Origin: Nitrospinota bacterium
GTDB lineage: Bacteria > Nitrospinota > Nitrospinia > Nitrospinales > JACRGP01
Assembly: GCA_016207065.1 (NCBI GenBank)
Contig: JACQQK010000149.1
Span: 1 to 63,114 of the forward strand
Length of the DNA: 63,114 nucleotides
Direction of reading: 5' to 3'
The notes under the pieces are model-generated. The model ran no database searches. It was not told the origin of the DNA and was given only the letters and a program-made list of their open reading frames with translations. Made by a program: the position numbers and the translations under genes. Below, piece by piece: positions 1 to 12,151 of the stretch. Within the stretch, counting starts at the first letter, position 1, and each line of letters begins with the position of its first letter.

Positions 1-1080
1 AGTGTTGACGTTCATGAAGTTGAAGCGGTCGTCCTCGCGGACTTTAACATATTTGAACGGCAGTTCGCTAATGATACGGGAAAGGGACAGCTCCCGCCGG
101 GACATCGCCTCGTACAGGGGCAGGATGAATTTGGGTTCGTAGATGGCGCACATGGGTTCGAACCCCAGGTGGCCTTTTTGGATGTAACAGGTCCCGTAGC
201 GCAACGGGTCGCGCTCGCGGACGATGGCCGAGAGGTTCTCCTCCCTGAGGAACGGCATGTCGCAGGCGACGACCAGCCACGCCTTGTCGGGGAAACGCCC
301 CATCAAGGTCGCCAGTCCGCCGACCGGCCCCAGCCCGATGTGTTCGTCGTCGATCCGCTCGCAGTTGGGCAGAGGCCCCAGCGCGCTCATGTCCAGGTCG
401 GCGCGGGAGGACAGGAACAGTTTCTCGCCATACTTCCCCAGCAGGTTGACCAGCCGGAGGGATTCCGGCATCCCGTTGTAGCAGAGCATGAACTTCGGGA
501 CGCCCCCCATGCGCTTGCTTTGCCCGCCGATGAATACCGCGCCATACAAAGGACAGGCGCGGTTGAAAAAGTGCGTTTTGACGAAAGCGTAGATCCGGTC
601 GATCTCGTCGCGATGGAAAACCGGGATGTCCGGGTCCTTCAGCCTGCCTTCCGGCAGGGTCCCCATGTGGATGAGGGCCTTGATCCCGGGGGTGTCGTGG
701 GGGATGGGCAGGGCGCCCTCGGCGTCCAAAAACACCACCTTGTCGAACGGCGATTGCTTGTATCCCTCGATCAGGATGCAGTCGCACTGCTCCAGGGCGT
801 GGGTGACGGTGCGTTGCTTGAAGTCGTCGTTGGCCACCACCGCGAAATGCACCGGGTCGTTGATGGTGACGATCCCCGCTCCCGCCTGGGCGCACCGGAA
901 GGTGTCCTTGCCCTCCTTGTCCATGGTGAACCGGTGCGCGTCGTGCTTGTAGTAGCCGATGCGGATGGCGTCCTCCTTGAACCTCTTGATGAGCCGCTCG
1001 ATCAGGGTCGTTTTGCCGACGCCGGAATAACCCGCGAAGCACAAAAAAGGAGTCTTGAATTGTTCCCAGTAACTGTCCAT
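1..1080 (-). CDS. mobA: MobB-MobA fusion (molybdopterin-guanine dinucleotide biosynthesis); C-terminus lies beyond the window edge
   Basis: Absent from the ORF track because it is open at the edge. My reverse-strand translation from ATG 1080 reads MDSYWEQFKTPFLCFAGYSGVGKTTLIERL (MobB P-loop), then GAVFIGGQSKRMGG.PKFML and VVACDMPFL (MobA motifs). The frame stays open to base 1. ORFs 68..1123(-) and 169..1440(+) are shadow frames. Confidence 0.8.
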   Translation of the reverse strand, partial: MDSYWEQFKTPFLCFAGYSGVGKTTLIERLIKRFKEDAIRIGYYKHDAHRFTMDKEGKDTFRCAQAGAGIVTINDPVHFAVVANDDFKQRTVTHALEQCDCILIEGYKQSPFDKVVFLDAEGALPIPHDTPGIKALIHMGTLPEGRLKDPDIPVFHRDEIDRIYAFVKTHFFNRACPLYGAVFIGGQSKRMGGVPKFMLCYNGMPESLRLVNLLGKYGEKLFLSSRADLDMSALGPLPNCERIDDEHIGLGPVGGLATLMGRFPDKAWLVVACDMPFLREENLSAIVRERDPLRYGTCYIQKGHLGFEPMCAIYEPKFILPLYEAMSRRELSLSRIISELPFKYVKVREDDRFNFMNVNT

Positions 1081-1190
1081 GAGTTCCGTAGCCCGAAACC
1101 GCTGTCAACGGCGCGTTTGCCAATATCTAATACATTGAGAATTAAGCCATTATTTCCGATCCAATCCCGCCGTGTCAACCTTTTAGTTCC

Positions 1191-1305
1191 CTCCCCACTC
1201 GCCGTGGGGGGGCGAAGCCGCCTCGCGCTTGCGCCGAGGCGGGAACTGCTTTTCGGCGATCGCGTCAGCGTCATCGCCGCATTGCCCGCCGGGGGCATCC
1301 CCGGC
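1191..1305. repeat. Hairpin-rich intergenic repeat (family B, inverted copy) preceded by a CCCCAC..GTGGGG hairpin
   Basis: The reverse complement of about 1217-1300 aligns with 21900-21975, with identical runs gacgctgacgcgatcgcc and gttcccgcctcggcg. Confidence 0.6.
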
Positions 1306-1420
1306 GCGTTGCTGTTGCAAAACGATAATGTAACAGCCTCCGCGTTTTCGAAGTTGCCTAAAAAAGGTCGGGGTTTTGTTAACCCATTGAAATTGTTTAC
1401 AAGTATTTCTCCCGAGGTTT

Positions 1421-1435
1421 TGGCATCGAATTTGA
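1421..1435 (+). promoter_or_regulatory. Candidate sigma-54 -24/-12 promoter of nirK (TGGCAT-N5-TTGA)
   Basis: The GG and the N5 spacing match TGGCAC-N5-TTGC, but the -12 C is an A. It lies about 60 nt upstream of the nirK ATG, and a sigma-54 activator gene is adjacent. Confidence 0.3.
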
Positions 1436-1495
1436 AGTAGATAGTTTTCGGTTTGGTTTTGGGATGTATCGTATCAACTTTACTGGAGGTAATAA

Positions 1496-2518
1496 ATGAA
1501 CTGCAAGAAATTGTTTGGCAAAGTTGGAGTTGTCTGTTGTTCCGCCGCTCTGTTGTTCCTGGTTTCCAGCAAGGCGACGGCCAACGAAACCGCGCAACTG
1601 ACCGCGGCGCCCAACGTCCCCAGCCCGGTTGCTAAACGGGGCCCGGCGACGGTGGTGGTGAATTTCGAGGCCAAGGAATTCGTGGGCGACCTGGCCGAGG
1701 GCAAGAAATACAAGTTCTGGAGTTACAACGGCACGGTCCCCGGCCCCATGGTCCGGGTGCGGGTCGGCGACACCGTCGAATTTCACTTGTCCAACCCCAA
1801 GACCAACGTCCAGCCGCATAACATCGACATCCATGCCGTGAACGGGCCCGGCGGCGGGGCGGCCGTCTCCACCGTGTCTCCCGGCGAGACGAAGGTGTTC
1901 CAGTTCAAGGCGCTCAACCCCGGCCTGTACATCTACCATTGCGCCGCGGGGGCCATCGTGGACCATATCGCCAACGGCATGTACGGCCTGTTCCTGGTCG
2001 AGCCGGAAAAGGGTCTCCCGAAAGCGGACAAGGAATTCTATGTCTTCCAGAGCGAGTTCTTCACCGACGGCGCGCCGGAAGCGGGGTTTAATATCGAAAA
2101 AGGTCTCGCCGAGCATGCCGACCACGTGGTCTTCAACGGCAAGGCCGGCGCGCTGATGGGCGACAACGCCCTGAAAGCCAAGGTGGGCGATAACGTCCGG
2201 ATCTTCTTCGGCAACATCGGGCCCAACAGCGTCTCCTCGTTCCACATCATCGGGGAGATTTTCGACCGGGTTTACTCGGAAGGGGCCATCGGCGGATCCG
2301 TCAACCACAACGTGCAGACGACCCTGGTGCCGTCGGCGGGCTCGACCATCGTCGAGTTCAAGCTCGACGTGCCAGGGCCCTACACTCTGGTCGACCACAG
2401 CATTTTCCGGGTGGCCAAGGGAGCCATCGGCCAGTTGATCGCCGAGGGCAAGGAGAACCCGGCCGTGTATAAGAGCCTGTCCGACGTCCATGTCGATCCC
2501 ACCAAGGGCGGACATTGA
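1496..2518 (+). CDS. nirK: Copper-containing nitrite reductase (NirK), Sec signal peptide
   Basis: GGAGG lies 6-12 nt upstream of the ATG. PHNIDIHA supplies a T1/T2 Cu His plus the catalytic Asp. YIYHCAAGAIVDHIANGM supplies His-Cys..His..Met type-1 Cu ligands. A C-terminal VDHS His is present. Two-cupredoxin size (340 aa). Confidence 0.92.
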   Translation: MNCKKLFGKVGVVCCSAALLFLVSSKATANETAQLTAAPNVPSPVAKRGPATVVVNFEAKEFVGDLAEGKKYKFWSYNGTVPGPMVRVRVGDTVEFHLSNPKTNVQPHNIDIHAVNGPGGGAAVSTVSPGETKVFQFKALNPGLYIYHCAAGAIVDHIANGMYGLFLVEPEKGLPKADKEFYVFQSEFFTDGAPEAGFNIEKGLAEHADHVVFNGKAGALMGDNALKAKVGDNVRIFFGNIGPNSVSSFHIIGEIFDRVYSEGAIGGSVNHNVQTTLVPSAGSTIVEFKLDVPGPYTLVDHSIFRVAKGAIGQLIAEGKENPAVYKSLSDVHVDPTKGGH

Positions 2519-2540
2519 CATGAGTTACCCTTACCCCGCC

Positions 2541-2619
2541 CTCTCCCGTCAAGGGAGAGGGTGACACAATGCTCCTTCTCCCCTGGCGGGAGAAGGTCAG
2601 GATGAGGGGGATTTGAAAG
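2541..2619. repeat. Family-A-like repeat fragment (two short GC hairpins plus GGGGGATTTGAAAG)
   Basis: Contains ctctcccgtcaagggagag, cttctcccctggcgggagaag and gagggggatttgaaag. The GGGGGATTTGAAA tail recurs at 8733, 11755, 29941 and 51589. Confidence 0.5.
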
Positions 2620-2639
2620 AAGGCGTTCGAAAATAGAAA

Positions 2640-2677
2640 GCCGCCTGGAAGGTTGGTTCTTCCAGGCGGCTTTTTTT
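2640..2677 (+). terminator. Rho-independent terminator after nirK; probably shared with the convergent activator gene
   Basis: A 12-bp perfect stem gccgcctggaag / cttccaggcggc (2640-2651 and 2659-2670) with a 7-nt loop, followed by T7 (2671-2677). The upstream side is A-rich. Confidence 0.8.
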
Positions 2678-2699
2678 GTTTATTGCAGGCGGGACGGTT

Positions 2700-4034
2700 T
2701 CACGCCAGGCGCCATTGCCGCATTTTCCGCCACAAGGTGATCCGGTGCAGGTCCAGGAGATCGGCGGCATGGGTGCGGTTGTTGCCGGTCTGGGTCAACG
2801 CTTGCATTACCATGTCGCGGGTGACCCGGTTCCGCCGCTGTTTCTTCTTCCCGTTTTTCTCGCCGCTGGCGTTCCGGTTGGACAATAGGTAGACCGGGAA
2901 ATCCTCCGGTTCGAGGACGTCCTTGGAGCATTTCACGCATGCGTGCTCGACGGCGTTTTCCAACTCGCGGACGTTGCCGGGCCAGTTGTAATCGGCCAGT
3001 TTCCGGTGGGCGGCGTCGGAGATCCGGGACACCGGCTTGGAGGTCTTCTTGTTCCAGTTGTTGATGAACTGCTGGCACAGCAGGGGGATGTCCTCCTTGC
3101 GCTCCCGCAGGGGGGGCAGGTGGATGGGGATGACGTTCAGCCGGTAATACAAGTCCTCGCGGAACCGCCCCGCCTCGACTTCCTTGAGGATGTTCTTGTG
3201 GGTGGCGACGATGATCCGGATATCGACCTTCCGGGGCTTGTTGTCGCCCACCCGCTCGATTTCCTTTTCCTGCAGGACGCGCAGGAGCTTGACCTGGATG
3301 GCGGGACTCAGGTCCCCGATCTCGTCGAGGAAAATCGTCCCGCCGTCGGCCTCCTCGAATCGGCTGGTCCGGTCCCGTTCCGCCCCCGTGAACGCGCCGC
3401 GGACGTGGCCGAACAACTCGCTTTCCAGCAGGCTGTCCGAGAACGCCGAGCAGTTCACCTTGACCAGATTGTGGGCCGAACGCGGGCTTTCCTGATGGAT
3501 GGCCTGCGCCACCAGTTCCTTGCCCGTCCCGCTTTCCCCCTGGATGAAGACCGTGGAGTCGAAGACGGCGATGTTCTTGATCGTCCCGAACAACTCCTTC
3601 ATCCGCAAGCTCTTGCCGATGATGTTCCGGAACGAATGCTTGCCTTCGCGGCCGTTCTTCAAATTGGCGATTTCCGTGATGTCCGTCAACGCCACCAGCA
3701 CCTCCAGCTTTCCCTCCGGACTTTTCCACAGGCGCCCGGCGTTGAACTCCCCGGTCCGTTCAATGCCGTCCTTGCGGATAAAGGGGGACTTGAAATGGAC
3801 GATGCGCGAGCTTTCGCCGGTCTTCGTGGACATGCACAAAGCGCAGTTGTTCAGGCAGAGGCTTTTGTCGAACAACGCGACGCATTTCTGGCCGATGACG
3901 TCTTCCCTCCTGTGGCCGGTGATCCGCTCCGCGGCGGAGTTGAAATATTTGATCCGCATGTTCTCGTCATAAACGAACACCGCTTCGCTCAGGACGTTCA
4001 AAGCCGTAAGGAGATGGTTCTGCCGGTCTGACAT
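2700..4034 (-). CDS. Sigma-54-dependent transcriptional activator (bEBP) with N-terminal PAS-like sensor and C-terminal Fis-type HTH
   Basis: Walker A GESGTGKE, the GAFTGA loop, ESELFGH and WPGNVRELEN are present, with a C-terminal HAADLLDLHRITLWRKM HTH. The N-terminus is PAS-like (FNSAAERITGHRREDVIGQKC). There is no receiver domain. Confidence 0.92.
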   Translation of the reverse strand: MSDRQNHLLTALNVLSEAVFVYDENMRIKYFNSAAERITGHRREDVIGQKCVALFDKSLCLNNCALCMSTKTGESSRIVHFKSPFIRKDGIERTGEFNAGRLWKSPEGKLEVLVALTDITEIANLKNGREGKHSFRNIIGKSLRMKELFGTIKNIAVFDSTVFIQGESGTGKELVAQAIHQESPRSAHNLVKVNCSAFSDSLLESELFGHVRGAFTGAERDRTSRFEEADGGTIFLDEIGDLSPAIQVKLLRVLQEKEIERVGDNKPRKVDIRIIVATHKNILKEVEAGRFREDLYYRLNVIPIHLPPLRERKEDIPLLCQQFINNWNKKTSKPVSRISDAAHRKLADYNWPGNVRELENAVEHACVKCSKDVLEPEDFPVYLLSNRNASGEKNGKKKQRRNRVTRDMVMQALTQTGNNRTHAADLLDLHRITLWRKMRQWRLA

Positions 4035-4110
4035 GGTTCCTCTTTATAGCGTATATGGAAGGGATTTTTCGGCCCTTTGGCCAGGAAAGCGAAAATTATA
4101 AATAAAAAAC

Positions 4111-4149
4111 GCAACGGTTGCAAATATTAATAATGCAACAATATGTTGC
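4111..4149. promoter_or_regulatory. Two GCAAC-N-GTTGC palindromes upstream of the activator gene
   Basis: GCAAC-G-GTTGC at 4111-4121 and GCAAC-AATAT-GTTGC at 4135-4149, in the AT-rich region 5' of the minus-strand bEBP start (4034). Confidence 0.35.
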
Positions 4150-4205
4150 GAATATGGGGAGTAGGAGGCGAATCCCAGTCTTTTACCGCCTCCGAACGCG
4201 GCTGA

Positions 4206-4544
4206 TTAAAGAAACGTTAAAATGGTTTTATGCAGGAAAAACCCGACCGCCAGCAAACCCAGCCCGGCCAGATAGCATTGCCAGAAGGACAGGCCCAGTT
4301 TCTCCGCCAACAAAAAGGGCACGAAGAACAGCAAGGATACGGGGATGCCGACGAAGACGCTCTTGGCGAACGCGATGGAGGCTTGGGGATTTTCGTGCTC
4401 GGCGTAGGAAAAGGCCAGGGCGACGAGGGTGGCGACGGGCAAGGCAATAATGAAACCCGCGAGGTCGGGCCGCTTACCCGAAAGCCACGAGCAAAAACTG
4501 ATGATGCCGGCGGCGACGGCCGTTTTTAGAATAAACAGGGTCAT
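4206..4544 (-). CDS. Small polytopic membrane protein (112 aa, about 4 TM segments), unknown function
   Basis: The internal ATG at 4544 of ORF 4206..4796 starts the hydrophobic part (MTLFILKTAVAAGIISF...). The upstream 84 codons overlap the csoR-like gene antisense and look like a shadow frame. Confidence 0.6.
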   Translation of the reverse strand: MTLFILKTAVAAGIISFCSWLSGKRPDLAGFIIALPVATLVALAFSYAEHENPQASIAFAKSVFVGIPVSLLFFVPFLLAEKLGLSFWQCYLAGLGLLAVGFFLHKTILTFL

Positions 4545-4580
4545 GGCGTTTTCGAGCGTCCCCCAAATATGTGCGTTCGC

Positions 4581-4616
4581 TTGACATATCCTATCCCCAG
4601 GGATAGGATATGTCAA
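4581..4616. promoter_or_regulatory. 36-bp palindromic operator overlapping divergent promoters (17-bp perfect arms)
   Basis: TTGACATATCCTATCCC-CA-GGGATAGGATATGTCAA. Each arm starts with TTGACA, and TAGGAT lies 17 nt downstream on either strand. It sits in the 75-bp gap between genes starting at 4544(-) and 4620(+). Confidence 0.65.
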
Positions 4617-4619
4617 GCC

Positions 4620-4889
4620 ATGGACAAGCACGAAACGCATCCGGAAATCGTCAAGCGCCTCAAGCGAGCCTTGGGCCACCTGGACAAGGTGGTCCACATG
4701 ATCGAGTCGGGGAAGGCCTGTCTGCAAGTAGCCCAGCAACTGCAAGCCGTCGTCAACGCCATCGCCAAGGCCAAGCAAATCTACGTCCAGGACCATATCG
4801 AAAACTGCATCGAAACGAGAGAAGGTCTGGCGTCCAAGGATCTCGCCCGGCAGGTCAGGGAGTTGAAGGAAATCGCAAAGTATTTGTGA
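4620..4889 (+). CDS. CsoR/RcnR/FrmR-family metal- or stress-sensing transcriptional repressor (DUF156)
   Basis: MDKHETHPEIVKRLKRALGHLDKVVHMIESGKACLQVAQQLQAV..QDHIENC shows the family helix pattern with a Cys...His-x3-Cys fingerprint. I chose ATG 4620 (89 aa) over the track start 4569, which would be encoded by the palindrome. Confidence 0.85.
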   Translation: MDKHETHPEIVKRLKRALGHLDKVVHMIESGKACLQVAQQLQAVVNAIAKAKQIYVQDHIENCIETREGLASKDLARQVRELKEIAKYL

Positions 4890-4938
4890 TGCGAGGACAC
4901 GGCGGGATTTGGACGCCCCTAAATAGTTGCCCAGACAT

Positions 4939-4956
4939 TATAGCATATATGCTATA
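4939..4956. promoter_or_regulatory. Perfect 18-bp palindrome overlapping a TATAAT box; likely HigA operator
   Basis: TATAGCATATATGCTATA at 4939-4956 and TATAAT at 4953-4958, 11 nt upstream of the toxin ATG 4969. Confidence 0.45.
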
Positions 4957-4968
4957 ATAAGACCGTCC

Positions 4969-5295
4969 ATGAGCTGGATTGTCGAGACCCTCAACCAAAC
5001 TGTCGATGATGAGTTGGAAGCCCTTCCGGCGGACATGCGGGCCATGTTTGCCCGCATTGTTGGGCTCATCGAATCCCTGGGATTGGAAAATGCCGGACGT
5101 CCCCACGTCAAACGCCTGGAAGGCCCTCTTTGGGAAATCCGCATGACTGGGAAGGCGGGAATTTCACGGGCGATTTACGTTACGGCGACAGGCCGCCGCA
5201 TAGTTGTCGTTCGCGTTTTCATAAAGAAGACCCAAAAGACGCCGCGCCGTGAAATTGACCTTGCCCTTGAAAGAGCAAAGGAGCTATTGAAATGA
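4969..5295 (+). CDS. higB: Type II toxin, RelE/ParE superfamily (HigB / phage Gp49-like)
   Basis: SWIVETLNQTVDDELEALPADMRAMF...LEGPLWEIRMTGKAGISRAIYV..RRIVVVRVFIKKTQKTPRREI is a typical Gp49/HigB pattern. It overlaps the downstream XRE antitoxin by 4 nt (ATGA). Confidence 0.8.
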   Translation: MSWIVETLNQTVDDELEALPADMRAMFARIVGLIESLGLENAGRPHVKRLEGPLWEIRMTGKAGISRAIYVTATGRRIVVVRVFIKKTQKTPRREIDLALERAKELLK

Positions 5296-5585
5296 CCAAA
5301 GTAAGAGACTTGCATAAAAAGTGGATGAAGGACCCCGGCTACCGCGCCGAATACGAGAAACTGGGGCCCGAATATGGGCTGGCCCGCGCCATTATCGAGG
5401 CGCGGATAAAAGCCGGGCTCACCCAGAATCAGTTGGCGAGGAAGATGAAGACAACCCAATCCGTTATCGCCAGGCTTGAGGGCGGAGACGTTAATCCCTC
5501 GACAAGGACCTTGGAGCGTTTGGCAAAAGCCACGGGCACGCGCCTTAAAATCGATTTTGTGCCGGTGGGCGAGGCTCGCGTTTAA
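5292..5585 (+). CDS. higA: XRE-family HTH antitoxin (HigA-like)
   Basis: HTH GLTQNQLARKMKTTQSVIARLEGG; 97 aa; translationally coupled to the toxin. Confidence 0.85.
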   Translation: MTKVRDLHKKWMKDPGYRAEYEKLGPEYGLARAIIEARIKAGLTQNQLARKMKTTQSVIARLEGGDVNPSTRTLERLAKATGTRLKIDFVPVGEARV

Positions 5586-5663
5586 TGAGCCGGAGGGAAA
5601 AATTCATCCAGAACATGAAATTTCATTTGTCCTCTCCTTTGCGCAGGCGCTCTTTGACGAATT

Positions 5664-6059
5664 CTAGCAGGTTGCTGAAAAACTATTTTTTAGTCTTTTG
5701 CCGTCATTCCCGTGAAAACGGAATCCAGTGTTTTCAAGGGCTTTCTGGATGCCCGCTTTCGCGGGCATGACGATTTTTGGGCGCAAAAGGGACTTTTTCA
5801 GCGCCCGGCTAGAGATTCTCTCGGTTCGTTGGCCCGCGACCGCGCGATCATATTGTATTGACAATTGAAGTCCATCGAGAATGGCGCGCAATGTGCCCGG
5901 CCTGATGGGTTTGCTTCCATGAACGGGAATGACGGCTCTTCGGCTGGGGTCGTCTCGATGGACCATGATCGCATGTCCTCCGGTCAGTCTCTTTACGTAA
6001 AACCCCCATCCTTCAAGAATGCGGATGAGGCGCGGACCGGAGATTTGCGGAAGTTTCAT
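5664..6059 (-). CDS. hicA: HicA-family mRNA interferase toxin with an abnormally long C-terminal extension reading through the MITE
   Basis: MKLPQISGPRLIRILEGWGFYVKRLTGGHAIMVHRDDPSRRAVIPVHGSKPIRPGTLRAILDGLQLS is the HicA pattern. The ATG overlaps the hicB stop (TGATG). The ORF continues about 65 codons beyond the usual HicA end. Confidence 0.7.
   Translation of the reverse strand: MKLPQISGPRLIRILEGWGFYVKRLTGGHAIMVHRDDPSRRAVIPVHGSKPIRPGTLRAILDGLQLSIQYDRAVAGQRTERISSRALKKSLLRPKIVMPAKAGIQKALENTGFRFHGNDGKRLKNSFSATC
5671..5802. mobile_element. MITE-like repeat, family C, copy 1 (about 130 bp, GCTGAAAAA terminal inverted repeats, two 8-bp GC hairpins)
   Basis: Shares a 32-nt identical core tttctggatgcccgctttcgcgggcatgacga and overall colinearity with 20908-21035. 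The ends are gctgaaaaac... and ...ctttttcagc. Confidence 0.7.
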
Positions 6060-6286
6060 CAAACGACGATCTCGATGTCCCGGATGAGGACTTCCGCGCC
6101 GGTTTCGGGGACCGGCAGGCCGTCGTCTTTCAGACTCCAAAGATAAAGCTTGATCGCTTCCTGGATGTTGGCGTTAGCTTCGTCGAAGTTGTCCCCTTGG
6201 GAAACGCAACCCGGAAGGGCGGGGACATGGACGGAGTACCCGCCGTCGGATTCCTGCTCGAAGACAACTTTAAATCGATAGCTCAT
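6059..6286 (-). CDS. hicB: HicB-family antitoxin (UPF0150)
   Basis: YRFKVVFEQESDGGYSVHVPALPGCVSQGDNFDEANANIQEAIKLYL is the typical HicB N-domain; 75 aa; coupled to hicA. Confidence 0.8.
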   Translation of the reverse strand: MSYRFKVVFEQESDGGYSVHVPALPGCVSQGDNFDEANANIQEAIKLYLWSLKDDGLPVPETGAEVLIRDIEIVV

Positions 6287-6488
6287 GTCGCGGTATTCCT
6301 TTCAGCAAGATAGCCGTTAACGCATAACCCAAACCCAGTCTAGACCGGATACCGATCGAGTGGAAGGGGGAAAATTTGGAGTGCAAAGCCTCCCGGCTTT
6401 GCATGCAACGCGAGGACGCGTTGCGCTCCAAAAACTTCCGCTTTGTCCAGCGGTTTTCCCCCTTGTTTATGAATGGGCAAAAAAGCGC

Positions 6489-8636
6489 CTACAGTTGCCG
6501 CAGGGTTTTCCACAGTCCTTTTTTCTCGCTGGGCGAAGGGGAAAGGCCGGCGAAGCGGAGTCGCTCGTACAGGCCGGTTATCTCCTGGACCAGTTGCCGT
6601 TTCTCGGGGGGCAGGGGCTCCAGATGATCAAGGAACTCCCGGTGCGTCCAGTTCGGGCGCTTGCGCAGGCCGGACTTCTCCAGTTTCCGCAACATCGCGG
6701 CGTACAGGGCGACGGCAAAGGGGGGTCGAGAGGCGGCGGACCCCGGCCGCCATGGAACCCTGGCCCACAACGCGGCCAACGCGACGGTCAAGGCGACAGC
6801 GAGGGCATAGCCCCGGTTATCGCGGAGAAATTGCGCGGCGTTCTTCCAGGCGTCCGGCCTCAACGATTTGACTTTGTGGAGCAGGTCGCGTCCGCTCCGG
6901 CCGAACCAGTTGTACATGCGCACCTGGTCGTGCACGGAGTAGCGGATGACGTAGCGTTGCCAGTTCAGGCGGAGCAGGTCGAGGGCACGGGTTACGGGGT
7001 TGTTCAACTGGGTCGCCCGGGCCAGCGGGTCGGGCGGGGTGGGGTCGTAAACGGCCCAGCCTTTTCCCGGTATAAAGGCCTCGACCCAGGAGTGGGCGTG
7101 GCTCTGGCGGACGATCAAGTAGTTCCCCAGTTCGTTCCATTCCCCTCCGGCAAAACCGTTGACAAGACGGGCGGGGACCCCCGCGGAGCGCAAAAGGACG
7201 ACCATGGCCGAGGCGAAATATTCGCAATGCCCCTTCTTGCGGTCGAACAGGAACTCGTCCAGGCCGGGCTTCATGGTCTCCTTGACCATGTCGAGGGAAT
7301 ACTGGAAATTCCCGGCGAAATGATTCAGTATCTTTTCGGCCTTGGCCGATGGGGTTTGCGCGGACCGCGTCAGGTCGCCGGCCAATTGAGCGATGCGCGG
7401 GCCCAGGCCCTCCGGCAACTGGAGGAACCGGCCCATGAACTCCGGCTCGGCGGGCCCCGGAGAAATCAGGTCGATGTTGACGTCGGGATGCCCGATTTCC
7501 GACCGCATGATGAACTTTTTGGGGCCGTACGGGCTTCCCAACAGTCGCAGGACGAAGCTTTGGTCCATTTCCAGCCCGCGGAAATTGCCGTCGATGAACG
7601 CCGGGACGCCGTGCGTGAACACGATGTCCGAATCGAAGGACTCGACGAAAACCTCCTGCTCCATCATTTCCGACGGAGGATCGACCACGAAGAGGTCGAT
7701 CCCCACGCCCGCCCTGTTGCGGGCCTGCCATTCCGTCGGCGCGGTCGCGGTCCATGACTGGCCGTCGTAATGGTCCAGGGCCACCCCCCGCCACAGGATC
7801 CTGGACCTGGGCCGGTAGCTTTTCCCGTCGCGCCGGTACTCCACGCGCATGACCACTTCCGGGTTGAGCTTGATCCTGCCGACGTCGCCCAGGGTGACGG
7901 TCTCGGAAAACCCGCTGATGGGCGAGGACCGGGCGTTCAACGCCAAAACGCCCAGGCTCAACCGCGGGAAGCTGACGAAGATGACGGACGTGAGGACGAG
8001 GCTGAGGGCCACGAGCCCGGCGGACAACCCGAACAGCGAGGCCCCGGCCGTTTCGTTCTCCCCGATGCGTTTGAACCGCGACGGCGGACAATGGCTTCCC
8101 CCGCGTTCCACCATCATGTTGTAAAAGATCAGGCTCCAGCAGAGGACCAGGTAGAACGACAGGAAGATGAAGGCGAACGCCAGGTCGCGGATGTAGATGG
8201 CCCCCAGCAGAAGGCAGATGACGGCGAGCAGATAGCTGTAGAGATAGTCGTTGAGTTCGGTCTTGAAAATGAACCGGGAGAAAAAAAGGACGGTCAAAAA
8301 CCCCACCACCAGTTCGACCAGGGGCAGGTTGAAACCGAAATACAAAACCGGCAGGATGAAAAACCCCCACTTCGACAGCGAGAACCCGGCGAGGGGCTCG
8401 ATGGGGATCTTCCGTTTGGTTTCGAGGACGAAACACGCGCCCAGCAGGACCGCCAGAGCGATATTGACCGTCTCCGGCATGATCTCGCTCATCGTCAGGC
8501 TCGACAGACCGATGGCCCCCAACGCATAGTTGAACAGGACAAAGCAGGAGCGGAGCTTGATCCCCCGCGCGGGATGGGAAAACGTTCTGGCGGCGTTAAA
8601 GAATCCAGTCGGCATTGGAAACTCGTTTCTGGGCAT
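6489..8636 (-). CDS. Transglutaminase-like membrane protein (TgpA-like: N-terminal multi-TM region, transglutaminase core, C-terminal TM/DUF4129-like tail)
   Basis: About 6 N-terminal TM helices. The core reads KKGHCEYFASAMVVLLRSAGVPARLVNGF...HAHSWVEAF..GWAVYDPT (Cys-His-Asp). The alternative start is MPTGFF at 8615. Confidence 0.85.
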   Translation of the reverse strand: MPRNEFPMPTGFFNAARTFSHPARGIKLRSCFVLFNYALGAIGLSSLTMSEIMPETVNIALAVLLGACFVLETKRKIPIEPLAGFSLSKWGFFILPVLYFGFNLPLVELVVGFLTVLFFSRFIFKTELNDYLYSYLLAVICLLLGAIYIRDLAFAFIFLSFYLVLCWSLIFYNMMVERGGSHCPPSRFKRIGENETAGASLFGLSAGLVALSLVLTSVIFVSFPRLSLGVLALNARSSPISGFSETVTLGDVGRIKLNPEVVMRVEYRRDGKSYRPRSRILWRGVALDHYDGQSWTATAPTEWQARNRAGVGIDLFVVDPPSEMMEQEVFVESFDSDIVFTHGVPAFIDGNFRGLEMDQSFVLRLLGSPYGPKKFIMRSEIGHPDVNIDLISPGPAEPEFMGRFLQLPEGLGPRIAQLAGDLTRSAQTPSAKAEKILNHFAGNFQYSLDMVKETMKPGLDEFLFDRKKGHCEYFASAMVVLLRSAGVPARLVNGFAGGEWNELGNYLIVRQSHAHSWVEAFIPGKGWAVYDPTPPDPLARATQLNNPVTRALDLLRLNWQRYVIRYSVHDQVRMYNWFGRSGRDLLHKVKSLRPDAWKNAAQFLRDNRGYALAVALTVALAALWARVPWRPGSAASRPPFAVALYAAMLRKLEKSGLRKRPNWTHREFLDHLEPLPPEKRQLVQEITGLYERLRFAGLSPSPSEKKGLWKTLRQL

Positions 8637-8682
8637 TCATGCCGGGATAACCCGGATATTACATGAGCAAAAGAATAGGATC

Positions 8683-8800
8683 GCTCCCCCTTGCAAAATC
8701 CCCCCTCGCCCTCCTTTGTCAAAGGGGGGATGGGGGGATTTGAAACTCCTGGTCGCGGTCATGGCACGAATCCCCCTGGCCCCCTTTACAAGGGGGGATG
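8683..8800. mobile_element. MITE-like repeat, family A (short form)
   Basis: Left end cctcctttgtcaaaggggggatggggggatttgaaa, right end gaatccccctggccccctttacaagggggg. The ends are inverted repeats of each other and each contains a CCCCC..GGGGG hairpin. Confidence 0.7.
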
Positions 8801-9131
8801 AAGCAAAGACGCTTTTTGCGCCGGGTATTTACGTTTTCCAAAAGATCGGCAAAGCCCCCCGTTCCCAAAACTCGAAACGTCTCCTTGGGACATTCGCTCG
8901 TGCAATATCCGGGACAAGTCGGGGTAACTCCCCGTGACCCTTTTATTGTAACTTCATTGTACCGGGATTTGCCGTCAAAAAAAAAACAAGCCCGTCAAGG
9001 TCCTCTCCGGCCCGTTTACGGTTGCGGAGGACGTTTTTGTTTTTTTACTTTTTGGGCGATAAACGGTACACTTGCGGAAGGTTTCATTTCAGGGCGTTGC
9101 GTCAATATCGCGGCAATCGATAAAATCCCCC

Positions 9132-9959
9132 ATGGACGTCAATACCATCCGATTCTCCGTTTTTCTAGGGGTATTCCTGATCATGTTGCTCCTGGAGCGG
9201 TTGGTCCCGCGTCATCCCCTGGTGGATTCGAAACCCCGCCGGCTGGCGATCAACCTGGCGATCACTGGGCTGGACATCCTCGCGGTGCGTCTGGCGTTCG
9301 GCGCCGCCGCCGTCGGCGCGGCCCAGTTCGCCCAGGAAAAAGGCTGGGGCCTGCTCAATTACTGGGACCTCCCCGCCTGGTTTGAATTCCTCCTCGCGCT
9401 CGTCTTTCTCGACCTGATGATTTATATCCAGCATGTCGTGGTCCACATGGTCCCCTTCTTCTGGCGGTTTCACGTGGTGCACCATTCCGACCTGGACCTC
9501 GACGTGTCCTCGGGACTGCGTTTCCACCCCGTCGAAATCCTGGGCTCCATGCTCTACAAGGCGGGGTTGGTCCTGCTCCTGGGCCCGGCGCCGCTCGCGG
9601 CGATGACGTTCGAGGCGGTCCTCAACGGCATGTCGCAATTCACCCATTCCAACATCCGCCTGCCCGCGCCCCTGGACAACGCCTTGCGCTGGGCGTTCGT
9701 GACGCCGGACATGCACCGGATCCACCACTCGGTCGAGGCGCGCGAAACCAATTCCAATTTCGGCTTCAACCTTTCGATCTGGGACCGTCTGCTGGGCACC
9801 TACATCCACGACGCCGCGAAACCGCAACCGGAGATCGTCATCGGCGTCGAATTTTTCCGGAAGCCCGGGGACGTTTCGTTCCTCAATCTGATGACCATGC
9901 CGTTCCGCGACAACATCACGCAAGCGTACACCAACTCCCCGAGGTCGCGGAGGGGTTAA
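9132..9959 (+). CDS. Fatty acid hydroxylase / sterol desaturase family membrane protein
   Basis: Histidine boxes HVVVH, HVVHH and HRIHH in a polytopic membrane context. I preferred ATG 9132 over the TTG 9072 given in the track. Confidence 0.8.
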   Translation: MDVNTIRFSVFLGVFLIMLLLERLVPRHPLVDSKPRRLAINLAITGLDILAVRLAFGAAAVGAAQFAQEKGWGLLNYWDLPAWFEFLLALVFLDLMIYIQHVVVHMVPFFWRFHVVHHSDLDLDVSSGLRFHPVEILGSMLYKAGLVLLLGPAPLAAMTFEAVLNGMSQFTHSNIRLPAPLDNALRWAFVTPDMHRIHHSVEARETNSNFGFNLSIWDRLLGTYIHDAAKPQPEIVIGVEFFRKPGDVSFLNLMTMPFRDNITQAYTNSPRSRRG

Positions 9960-9987
9960 CGCCAGAACGCCTTACCATGGAGACCGC

Positions 9988-11421
9988 ATGACTACGCCGC
10001 CCCGATTGACCAAGATCATCGCCACGCTGGGCCCCGCCACCGCCAGCAGAAAAGGCATAAAGGAACTGGCCGCCGCCGGGGTCAACGTGTTCCGGATGAA
10101 CCTTTCCCACGGACGCCACGACCTGCTCCGCCAATGGATCTCGTGGGTGCGGCAGGCGGAGAAGGAGTCGAGGACCCACCTGGGAGTCCTTCTGGACCTG
10201 CAGGGGCCCAAAATCCGCGTCGGAAAGTTCGAGAACGGTTTCATCGAGTTGCACCGCGGCGACCATGTGCGGTTCACGACCGAAAAAGTGACCGGCCGGG
10301 ACGGCCTGATTCACGTCCAGTACCGCAATTTCCACAAAGAGGTGCGGGTGGGAAGCCGGGTCTATCTGGACGACGGCAATATTTGCGTCCATGTGACCGA
10401 GGTCAACGGCAGGGAGGTGGCCGCCAAGGTCGAGGCGGGAGGAAGCCTTTCCAACTTCAAGGGGCTCAACATGCCCGACGCGGCGATCTCCGCCAGCCCG
10501 CTGACCGCCAAGGACAAGCGCGACCTGGCGTTCGGCCTGGCGGAGGGCGTCGATTTCGTGGCCCTGTCCTTCGCCAGCTCGGCCCGCGACATCCATCAGC
10601 TCCGGCGGTTGATCCGCAACGCGGGCGGCGACGCCGAGATCGTCGCCAAGATCGAGCGCAAGAAGGCCGTCGAGAACCTGGAGGAGATCGTGGAGGCTTC
10701 CGACGCCGTCATGGTCGCCCGGGGCGACCTGGGGATCGAGATCCACCTGGCCGAGGTCCCCATCGTCCAGCAGAACATCATGCGTCTGTGCGCCGTGCAT
10801 TGCAAGCCCGTGATCGTGGCGACGCAGATGCTGGAATCGATGATCTCCAACCGGCGGCCGACCCGCGCCGAGGTCTCGGACATCGCCCAGGCGGTGATGA
10901 ACTGCGCCGACGCCATCATGCTGTCGGCGGAGACCGCCGTCGGCAAATATCCCGACGCCGCCGTGTCGGTCATGTCCGAGACCGCGCGCAAGATGGAGGC
11001 GTATCAGCGCCAGCACCAGCGGATCCTGCCGTGGAGCTGGTACTTCAAGGAAGACCCGCCGATCAACCTCGGCATCACCTACTCGGCGAACCGCATGGTG
11101 GAACTGTTGAACGCCAAGGCCCTGATCATCTTCACCCTCACGGGGGGGACGGCGCGGCAGGTTTCCGGCCCGCGCCCCATGGTCCCGATCTTCTCCTTCA
11201 CCTCCGACCCGCGGCGGGCGCGGAAGCTGACCCTGCTCCGCGGCGCCGTGCCGTTCCTGTGGAAGCAGAAACGCGACTTCTCGGAGGACGTGGCGACGGT
11301 CTTCCGCATCCTGAAACGCCGCAACCTTCTCGAAAAAGGCGACCGGGCGATCATTACCTCCGGCATCCCGATCGGCATCCCGCAATGGACCAACGTGATC
11401 CGCGTGGAAAAAACGCCGTGA
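9988..11421 (+). CDS. pyk: Pyruvate kinase
   Basis: TKIIATLGPAT...GVNVFRMNLSHG...LLDLQGPKIRVG...VARGDLGIEI...VATQMLESM...RAEVSDIAQAV..GADAIMLSAETA; 477 aa. Confidence 0.95.
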   Translation: MTTPPRLTKIIATLGPATASRKGIKELAAAGVNVFRMNLSHGRHDLLRQWISWVRQAEKESRTHLGVLLDLQGPKIRVGKFENGFIELHRGDHVRFTTEKVTGRDGLIHVQYRNFHKEVRVGSRVYLDDGNICVHVTEVNGREVAAKVEAGGSLSNFKGLNMPDAAISASPLTAKDKRDLAFGLAEGVDFVALSFASSARDIHQLRRLIRNAGGDAEIVAKIERKKAVENLEEIVEASDAVMVARGDLGIEIHLAEVPIVQQNIMRLCAVHCKPVIVATQMLESMISNRRPTRAEVSDIAQAVMNCADAIMLSAETAVGKYPDAAVSVMSETARKMEAYQRQHQRILPWSWYFKEDPPINLGITYSANRMVELLNAKALIIFTLTGGTARQVSGPRPMVPIFSFTSDPRRARKLTLLRGAVPFLWKQKRDFSEDVATVFRILKRRNLLEKGDRAIITSGIPIGIPQWTNVIRVEKTP

Positions 11422-11489
11422 CCGGGACAAAGGCCGTCCGCGATTTATTTTTAACCCTTTTCCGGGATTGTTGATAGAATTCCCATTAC

Positions 11490-11699
11490 ATGTCCCCCCG
11501 CTACTACCTGATATCCGCGATCGTGGTTTTCGTGTTGACCGCCGTCATCAGCGCGGCGACGCAAAAGCGGACGGCGAAGGAAATCCTCATGGTCCTCTGT
11601 TGGGTGGTCTCGGGTCTCTTCCTGATTGTCGGCGCCCTGGTGGGGATCGTCCAGGCGCTGGCGATGTTGGGGATAGCGGAATCGGGTTATTTTTTTTGA
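11490..11699 (+). CDS. Small membrane protein (2 TM), hypothetical
   Basis: Two clear hydrophobic helices and an ATG start. No strong RBS and no family recognised. Confidence 0.35.
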   Translation: MSPRYYLISAIVVFVLTAVISAATQKRTAKEILMVLCWVVSGLFLIVGALVGIVQALAMLGIAESGYFF

Positions 11700-11731
11700 A
11701 AAAGGCCCGCGCAAAAGGCGTCTGTGTTTTA

Positions 11732-11910
11732 TTCCCCCTTGCACAAAGGGGGTCAGGGGGATTTGAAATCCCCATTCGCGCCAGCGTGCCGCTGGACCCA
11801 ACAGGCTTGAATCGGACGGCGAGCGGCGATCATCGAGGGCAATTTGGACCGCGCCAATCCGCCTTTATGTCGAGTAGCGCGAATCCCCCCAGCCCCCTTT
11901 ACCAGGGGGA
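11732..11910. mobile_element. MITE-like repeat, family A (long form, about 180 bp)
   Basis: Colinear with 51569-51741 and highly similar by eye (not computed). It has the same terminal hairpin modules plus a shared core ...cgcgccagcg..cgctgg.cccaacaggcttga.tcgga.ggcg...cgtcgagggcaat... Confidence 0.75.
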
Positions 11911-11932
11911 GAAAAAACATTGAGGAGGTTTT

Positions 11933-12151
11933 ATGGAATTGACCCCGACCGTGGCGCTGGTCTTGTTTTTGGCGTTCCTGGCGATGTCGTTTTTCATGGG
12001 GATGATGATCCACTCCGCCTTCGTCTACGAAGACAAGAACAACTTGAAGAAGGACAGCAAGAAGGCGTGGGTATTGTGCATGTCCGCCGGGCTGGGCATC
12101 ATGTTCTGGATTTTCCTCTACGGCTACTACGCCAACTTCCACCACAAGTGA
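11933..12151 (+). CDS. Small membrane protein (2-3 TM), hypothetical
   Basis: Strong GAGGAGG 5-11 nt upstream of the ATG, and hydrophobic helices (VALVLFLAFLAMSFFMGMMI, VLCMSAGLGIMFWIFLYGYY). Confidence 0.55.
   Translation: MELTPTVALVLFLAFLAMSFFMGMMIHSAFVYEDKNNLKKDSKKAWVLCMSAGLGIMFWIFLYGYYANFHHK

Follow-up and report, generated by a model that had tools for sequence, protein, structure and literature searches.

A four-cysteine PAS sigma-54 activator convergent with nirK in Nitrospinota: a putative iron-sulfur sensor and its predicted circuit

Introduction

Which protein controls nirK, the gene of the copper-containing nitrite reductase, in a nitrite-oxidising bacterium, and to which signal does it answer? 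This question is raised by a stretch of DNA of 63,114 nucleotides (nt) from a Nitrospinota bacterium (JACRGP01), corresponding to positions 1 to 63,114 of contig JACQQK010000149.1 (assembly GCA_016207065.1) and referred to below, at its whole length, as the window. There, the gene of a sigma-54 enhancer-binding protein whose PAS domain carries four clustered cysteines is convergent with nirK. NirK makes nitric oxide (NO), which is both a signal and a precursor of N2O. The hosts considered here are nitrite oxidisers and aerobes, and Nitrospinota-type organisms perform much of marine nitrite oxidation. The role and the regulation of NirK in nitrite-oxidising bacteria are unresolved, as stated for Nitrospira, in which sigma-54 regulators adjoin nxr (PMC6606698).

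In our estimation, it is rather likely that the protein encoded beside nirK is a one-component PAS sigma-54 activator with an all-cysteine [4Fe-4S] cluster on C51, C60, C64 and C67, which drives nirK and is negatively autoregulated. The domain architecture, the conservation of the cysteines, the gene linkage and the co-variation of the nirK promoter and enhancer with the regulator were observed directly and are presented first.

A complete sigma-54 activator without receiver domain

The regulator gene and the parts of its product are as follows.

2700..4034, minus strand: gene for the 444-residue sigma-54 enhancer-binding protein P0001 (PAS, AAA+, HTH_8), from Pfam
3672..4007, minus strand: N-terminal PAS sensor domain, residues 10-121, from Pfam, the AlphaFold2 (AF2) model and fold matches
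3834..3884, minus strand: four-cysteine motif C51-x8-C60-x3-C64-x2-C67, putative Fe-S ligands, from the translation and the homologue alignment
3120..3623, minus strand: sigma-54 interaction AAA+ domain, residues 138-305, from Pfam
2712..2819, minus strand: Fis-type HTH_8 DNA-binding domain, residues 406-441, from Pfam

The PAS domain was recognised by Pfam as PAS_9 (residues 17-121, 37 bits) and as PAS_4 (residues 12-121), and the remainder of the protein as Sigma54_activat (PF00158, 237 bits), AAA_lid_14 (92 bits) and HTH_8 (43 bits). All the parts of a sigma-54 activator are complete, since in addition to Sigma54_activat and HTH_8 the protein has an intact Walker A motif (GESGTGKE, at residue 166) and an intact GAFTGA loop (at residue 213; 3381-3398). 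Furthermore, rpoN is present in the host genome (Sigma54_DBD, 201 bits, G000 C95), the assembly of which has a size of 2.96 Mb and is about 80% complete.

An earlier note on this DNA, made from the sequence by itself, had described a PAS-like module lying directly before the AAA+ core, with neither a receiver domain nor a histidine kinase at hand, and a four-cysteine cluster at 3834-3884. This description was borne out. The PAS domain, which extends to residue 121, is placed by Pfam ahead of Sigma54_activat (138-305), and no histidine kinase was found among the scanned open reading frames (ORFs) of window positions 1-12000. The translation reads K50-C51-VALFDKSL-C60-LNN-C64-AL-C67, residues 51-67 falling exactly on 3884..3834. 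A two-component input through a receiver was rejected because Pfam finds no receiver domain in the regulator.

Conservation of the four-cysteine motif

The protein contains 8 cysteines in its 444 residues. Homologues were collected by a word-indexed search with residues 1-135, which gave about 60 proteins of the same architecture at 55-69% identity. The source names of these close homologues are Nitrospinaceae and Nitrospinota, and one cluster is from Nitrospira (P0043, P0045, P0049, P0050 and P0058-P0060). In the full-length sequences, C51, C60, C64 and C67 are invariant (54/54), and the other cysteines are variable, being kept in 1 (C320), 37 (C366) and 47 (C369) of the same 54 proteins. The PAS alignment A1, made of 37 sequences including distant homologues (30-34% identity in the PAS region), gave a similar result: there is no variation at C51, C60 and C64, and conservation is at least 90% at C67. 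Distant family f5 keeps the complete C-x8-C-x3-C-x2-C motif at 44-46% full-length identity (30-34% in the PAS region), and distant family f6 has the first three cysteines only, with an aspartate two residues past the first one. Across the phylum, the PAS module is present in 42 of the 120 genomes, 36 with a close and 6 with a distant homologue, and a PAS-domain scan of genome contigs led to 3 loci only.

An exhaustive HMMER search showed that G-x2-C-x8-C-x3-C is present in many other PAS domains, often as tandem copies in multi-PAS proteins. Among the 362 motifs of this kind in the fetched proteins, the residue two positions after the first cysteine (C+2) is Asp or Glu in 234/301 three-cysteine cases and Thr, Ala, Ser or Lys in 61/61 four-cysteine cases (Asp or Glu in 0/61), a contrast which is a pattern and no statistical proof, as the four-cysteine set comes essentially from one or two clades.

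The three-cysteine spacing is that of a published protein. OrpR (DVU2106) of Desulfovibrio vulgaris Hildenborough is a PAS / AAA+ / helix-turn-helix (HTH) sigma-54 activator with a redox-sensitive [4Fe-4S]2+ cluster in its PAS domain, which converts to [3Fe-4S]1+ upon mild oxidation; its C52, C61 and C65 are fully conserved and functionally required, and the fourth ligand was left unassigned by the authors, who proposed the conserved Asp/Glu54, that is, C+2 (PMC8359166). Thus, the earlier note, which did not recognise the architecture as that of a characterised NO/nitrite sensor, overlooked a characterised kind, OrpR being a PAS [4Fe-4S] sigma-54 activator with the same spacing. As the C+2 carboxylate is absent and a fourth cysteine is found, the Nitrospinota clade seems to carry the OrpR site in an all-cysteine form. 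OrpR itself was not among the 150 representatives listed, nor was it recognisable among the 120 hits listed, which were mostly multi-PAS activators of about 800 residues.

Hundreds of such 800-residue sigma-54 activators with the module were returned by the profile search, the named ones belonging to Desulfobulbaceae and related sulfate-reducing lineages. Those examined as P0074 and P0216-P0334 contain several PAS regions; P0074 has three tandem PAS modules, each with the three-cysteine motif. If each module binds a cluster, these proteins would be multi-cluster redox integrators.

A metagenome scan with the Nitrospira-type P0058 returned no close relatives, the hits being mostly other PAS activators, some with different cysteine patterns. 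Loci L094-L123 encode other PAS sigma-54 activators of about 440 residues in which this PAS position is also rich in cysteines but differently patterned, as in C-x7-C-x4-C and then further cysteines. The cysteine decoration of the PAS pocket thus seems diverse.

The cysteines in the cofactor pocket of the PAS fold

Residues 1-135 were modelled with AF2 from the 37-sequence alignment. The model is a PAS fold with a mean predicted local distance difference test (pLDDT) of 80 and a predicted template-modelling score (pTM) of 0.74, which, together with the Pfam hits, answers the proposal of the earlier note that the N-terminus be examined by profile search and structure prediction. In this model, C51 opens E-alpha and C60 belongs to the short helix that follows, F-alpha carrying both C64 and C67. 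Confidence is low only at residues 51-70 (pLDDT 54-66), as is commonly expected for an empty cofactor pocket.

The best fold matches were the heme PAS domains of DosP and FixL and LOV domains (VIA Z about 15). As the best sequence matches in the PDB are also the heme PAS domains of DosP and FixL, the regulator might bind heme as these proteins do and sense O2 or NO through the heme iron. However, no histidine lies at or near the position of the proximal ligand: the first His of the DosP PAHPEY segment, which we take to be the proximal heme ligand His77, aligns with N63, one residue before C64. No histidine is conserved in residues 51-75 of the homologues, which makes heme unlikely. A c-type CXXCH site was rejected too, the residue after C64-A-L-C67 being M, Q or L and never H. 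Binding of heme is consequently regarded as very improbable.

A different relationship was indicated by the NreB proteins, which hold an Fe-S cluster in a PAS domain: that of S. carnosus is a [4Fe-4S] with the motif CX2CX11CX2C, and that of B. licheniformis is a [2Fe-2S], the crystal structure of which is 9WEX (PMC13478379). With the family profile, 9WEX was matched at E = 2.5e-7, the best match among stand-alone PAS-domain entries. In the profile alignment, C51 and C64 correspond to the NreB ligands Cys63 and Cys78, respectively. 9WEX was not among the matches of the fold search, made on a solved-structure library to April 2026, and this has no bearing either way.

The four cysteines might also function without Fe-S, as a structural or redox Zn(Cys)4 site or, with the C64-x2-C67 pair, as a thiol/disulfide switch for the direct sensing of oxidants. 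Zn is a common occupant of Cys4 sites that include a CXXC pair, a point which counts against a cluster; thiol switches are robust in an aerobe, as the host is understood to be, and the computed evidence does not tell metals apart. Against this, three of the cysteines share the spacing of the OrpR cysteines required for sensing in an Fe-S-binding protein, two align with the crystallographic Fe-S ligands of NreB, and the site is found in the PAS cofactor pocket and not in a separate zinc-ribbon-like element. We hold a zinc site or a thiol switch to be unlikely. The earlier note had left the choice between an Fe-S centre, a metal site and a thiol switch; its cysteine cluster indeed lies at a PAS cofactor site, and an Fe-S centre, as a predicted cofactor, would be the best reading of it.

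Linkage to nirK and a sigma-54 promoter that follows the regulator

The elements on the nirK side of the locus are listed below.

1496..2518, plus strand: nirK, copper-containing nitrite reductase, predicted target, from TIGR02376
1421..1436, plus strand: sigma-54 type -24/-12 promoter TGGCAT-N5-TTGAA (TGGCATCGAATTTGAA), 75 nt upstream of the nirK ATG, from comparison between genomes
1308..1334, no strand assigned: predicted enhancer (upstream activator sequence), made of the half-site GTTGCT and, after it, the palindrome GTTGCA-N9-TGTAAC, some 100 nt ahead of the promoter, from comparison between genomes
1380..1392, plus strand: IHF-like site TAACCCATTGAAA between enhancer and promoter, weak evidence (a similar site in 8/36 loci)
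2640..2677, no strand assigned: hairpin and T-run, bidirectional terminator common to nirK and the regulator, from the sequence

The neighbour had been named as a nitrite reductase gene convergent with the regulator, and its product was indeed recognised by TIGR02376 with 316 bits, above the cut-off of 296 bits. In 28 of the 30 close-homologue loci with enough contig, nirK lies next to the regulator gene in convergent orientation. In G049 and G037, the contig ends within the regulator gene, right beside nirK; G075 and G076 carry the two genes at unlinked sites. The earlier note would have been abandoned if the cysteines had varied among orthologues or if the homologues had never been linked to N-oxide genes. 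As all four cysteines are kept in 54/54 sequences and nirK is adjoined in 28/30 loci, the functional link to nirK passed both tests.

Two sets of nirK loci were then compared, 36 from regulator-bearing genomes and 20 control loci from regulator-less Nitrospinota genomes. In nearly all the regulator-type loci, TGGCAC-N5-TTG(T/C/A) precedes the start of nirK by 46-104 nt. A -24/-12 motif was present in 36/36 loci of the first set (35 loci and the proximal copy of L039, after correction of a few start codons), for a background rate of 0.08 per 330 nt, and in 0/20 of the nirK control loci. Within the window, strict TGGCAC-N5-TTGCW is not enriched over shuffles (22 matches for 19 expected), so that the case for the promoter rests on the comparison between genomes.

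About 100 nt upstream of this promoter, the typical enhancer cluster consists of GTTGCA-N8-11-TGCAAC and one more half-site. The palindrome, with at most 2 mismatches, was found in 30/36 regulator loci and, weakly, in 2/20 controls. The unlinked nirK genes of G075 and G076 retain both promoter and enhancer. In the 2.96-Mb host assembly, 14 palindromes occur with at most 1 mismatch, two of them in this locus; the others sit inside long ORFs, and only the nirK copy is paired with a sigma-54 motif.

Conceivably, the adjacency could be conserved synteny and nothing else, with the real target elsewhere and the nirK promoter served by another activator. The convergent layout is unusual for an activator and its target, and a TgpA-like gene, described below, is also conserved upstream of the regulator. 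However, in four families of the phylum the presence or absence of the nirK sigma-54 promoter goes with that of the regulator, the nirK repeat recurs upstream of the regulator's own gene, unlinked nirK copies retain their sites, and no other palindrome of the genome has a sigma-54 motif as its partner. Mere synteny is therefore considered highly unlikely. The link is strong, and nirK is predicted to be the target of the regulator through its sigma-54 promoter. The papers searched described neither this regulator nor, for Nitrospina, any control of nirK by sigma-54.

Three loci (L039, L044 and L059, from G043, G020 and G023) have tandem nirK duplicates beside the regulator, with a sigma-54 promoter at one position per pair. 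In G090, a second, truncated regulator with a 282-residue open frame (L066, G090:C1:1481839-1482228) keeps the four cysteines and is far from nirK; this genome also holds a complete nirK-linked copy.

The regulator's own promoter

Upstream of the regulator gene, two overlapping elements were recognised.

4110..4150, no strand assigned: half-site cluster CGCAAC, GTTGCA-N11-TGCAAC and GTTGCG, predicted autoregulatory operator, from comparison between genomes
4095..4123, minus strand: sigma-70 type promoter, -35 TTGCAA (4123..4118), 17-nt spacer, -10 TATAAT (4100..4095), by eye

In nearly all of 32 loci read by eye, a TTGCA repeat precedes the regulator start by 60-110 nt, and the TTGCAA-N17-TAnnnT layout was seen, also by eye, in several other loci (for example L036, L040, L043, L047 and L054). 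The -35 box TTGCAA is itself one half of the palindrome. This overlap of the enhancer palindrome with the regulator's own -35 box implies autoregulation, and binding over the -35 would repress the gene. Self-repression is common among activators of this class. No convincing sigma-54 promoter was found upstream of the regulator gene.

The Rrf2 system at nirK and the nature of the signal

In half of the control loci, nirK is associated with another putative regulatory element, the 20-bp palindrome GATAAAAATATCTTTTTATC, which precedes nirK or the ScdA-nirK pair in 10/20.

L075:3893-3955, L077:2952-2971, L087:2835-2854, L090:2908-2927 and six more control loci: GATAAAAATATCTTTTTATC palindrome

Most of these loci also have a divergent gene for a protein of about 145 residues, and 4/4 of those tested belong to the Rrf2 family (NsrR-like). 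The palindrome was found in 0/35 regulator-type loci. NsrR-type Rrf2 proteins are Fe-S NO sensors which repress nirK in ammonia oxidisers. The mutual exclusivity of the two systems at nirK suggests that the Rrf2 system and the activator do the same job there.

In addition, the host genome keeps an Rrf2 gene of its own (G000 C2:14157-14573), the product of which is 52-57% identical to the nirK-linked ones, and an ATATCCTTTTATC half-site precedes a ScdA/YtfE-like gene (C100, near 6694; gene identity by eye from the N-terminus). This genome probably has an NsrR-type NO regulon in addition to the activator. The retained Rrf2 indicates that the activator is more than a substitute for an NO sensor that was lost, and it tilts the choice slightly towards O2 or redox rather than NO. 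A signal of O2 or redox is tentatively favoured, with less than even confidence.

With the same regulator and the same target, the signal might instead be NO, or NO derived from nitrite, with nitrosylation of the cluster as the switch, which would make the protein comparable in function to NsrR. NirK itself generates NO, a molecule that reacts readily with Fe-S clusters, and the Rrf2 gene and GATAAAAATATCTTTTTATC occupy half of the regulator-less loci and none of the activator-type ones. However, an NO sensor is probably already present in the host in the form of Rrf2, which would leave a second one at nirK with a partly duplicate role, and redox potential or O2 is what the characterised relatives (OrpR, S. 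carnosus NreB) respond to. An NO signal is possible but, on balance, doubtful.

Proposed circuit

Cofactor, bound DNA site, signal and sign of the response are predictions, and they may be assembled into the following scheme. The N-terminal PAS domain would hold a cluster, most likely [4Fe-4S], on C51, C60, C64 and C67. The Fis-type HTH would bind GTTGCA-N8-11-TGCAAC, the protein sitting constitutively on the nirK enhancer and on its own promoter. From about 100 nt upstream, it would activate the nirK sigma-54 promoter, and by binding the same palindrome over its own sigma-70 -35 box it would exert negative autoregulation. The AAA+ ATPase would be gated according to whether the cluster is intact, has been oxidised or degraded (by O2 or a high redox potential) or has been nitrosylated (by NO). 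This information would be relayed through the helix that links PAS to AAA+ (residues 120-132), permitting or blocking AAA+ oligomerisation and the ATP-driven opening of the promoter. By analogy with OrpR, intact [4Fe-4S]2+ may be the active form; following this analogy, nirK would be on at low O2 or low redox potential.

Several observations weigh against this scheme. First, the compared genomes are mutually related, and the counts given above overstate statistical independence. The -12 element is mostly TTGT or TTGA (TTGA in the window) and not the canonical TTGC. Moreover, the equivalence with OrpR rests on published residue numbers and spacing and not on a direct alignment. In aerobic nitrite oxidisers, a labile Fe-S sensor would be more surprising than in sulfate reducers. 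Finally, G003, which is 95% complete, has a four-cysteine homologue and gave no nirK match at E <= 1e-20, which means that the target there differs or that nirK is unassembled. The homologue of G003 (L067) is flanked by VTT-domain and PriA genes.

Taking these points together with the evidence in favour, we see it as an evenly balanced matter whether nitrite-oxidising Nitrospinota control nirK by a dedicated all-cysteine [4Fe-4S] PAS sigma-54 activator, reporting O2/redox or NO, that occupies at nirK the position of an NsrR-type repressor in sister lineages. If this is true, it would be, as far as the literature was searched, the first case of a nirK regulon that depends on sigma-54 and of an enhancer-binding protein with an Fe-S PAS domain in an organism other than a strict anaerobe, and the exchange of Asp/Glu for a fourth cysteine would lend indirect support to the fourth ligand proposed for OrpR. 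The proposed circuit is spelled out from the sensor to the DNA site, the promoter and the target, and its conservation in genomes resembling cultured Nitrospina makes the timing and the purpose of NO production experimentally approachable.

Other features of the neighbourhood

Upstream of the regulator and on the same strand, the window contains a gene for a TgpA-like transglutaminase (TgpA_N, Transglut_core, DUF4129; 6489-8636, minus strand). A TgpA-like gene also directly precedes the regulator in L064 (4543-6597), where nirK is unlinked, and L065 has an ORF of the same length and position. In the window, the regulator is separated from the TgpA-like gene by a CsoR unit and two toxin-antitoxin pairs (Gp49/HTH_3 at 4927-5585 and HicA at 5664-6140). 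In the CsoR unit (window 4545-4620 and 4569-4889), the CsoR-family repressor gene and a divergent gene for a small membrane protein, ending at 4206, flank a long perfect palindrome, which carries TTGACA boxes. Between the nirK stop codon and the terminator, at about 2525-2620, a repeat-like element ending in GGGGGATTTGAAA resembles a family of miniature inverted-repeat transposable elements (MITEs) present in the window.

Comparison with known systems

By its sequence, the regulator is neither NorR nor a kinase of the NreB type, and it is no heme PAS protein. With NorR it shares the sigma-54 AAA+ activator and, as may be the case here, direct sensing by metal chemistry and the response to an N-oxide. 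However, NorR senses through the mononuclear non-heme iron of a GAF domain, and no GAF domain was found here by Pfam. The assignment to NorR was rejected on these grounds and because NF003451 scored 344 bits for a cut-off of 476 and covered only residues 130-441.

The likeness to NreB concerns the Fe-S cluster in the PAS pocket (predicted for the regulator), the profile match to 9WEX, and the terminal C64-x2-C67, which resembles the second CX2C of the S. carnosus motif. In contrast, the ligand motif CX2CX11C(X2C) is not met by C-x8-C-x3-C-x2-C, C60 is without counterpart in NreB and NreB Cys66 without counterpart here, and the output is that of an AAA+ activator and not that of a histidine kinase.

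With NsrR, the common point would be the gene controlled, as predicted here, the Rrf2 gene and its palindrome being found at nirK in Nitrospinota devoid of the activator. The folds are unrelated, and NsrR is a repressor of sigma-70 promoters, whereas the present protein is a sigma-54 activator.

The closest resemblance is to OrpR. Both are one-component PAS / AAA+ / HTH proteins with an N-terminal PAS domain directly before the AAA+ core, both have the C-x8-C-x3-C spacing (51/60/64 here and 52/61/65 in OrpR, by published residue numbers), and both have, by prediction in the present case, sigma-54 type target promoters with a palindromic enhancer near the regulator gene. The regulator differs from OrpR by the fourth invariant cysteine, C67, in place of the conserved Asp/Glu at C+2, by its predicted DNA site, GTTGCA-N9-TGCAAC versus GGGCGYRTTTTGCGCCC, and by its host, a nitrite oxidiser, understood to be aerobic, versus a strict anaerobe. 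Its predicted target is nirK and not the orp operons, so that it would not be an OrpR orthologue in function. Thus, Fe-S PAS activators of the OrpR type are known, and the fourth cysteine, the predicted nirK target, the predicted DNA site and the nitrite-oxidising host are new. The clade would provide a natural all-cysteine counterpart to the three-cysteine-plus-carboxylate site of OrpR, and comparison of the two could reveal how the ligands tune the sensitivity of PAS clusters to O2, NO or redox potential.

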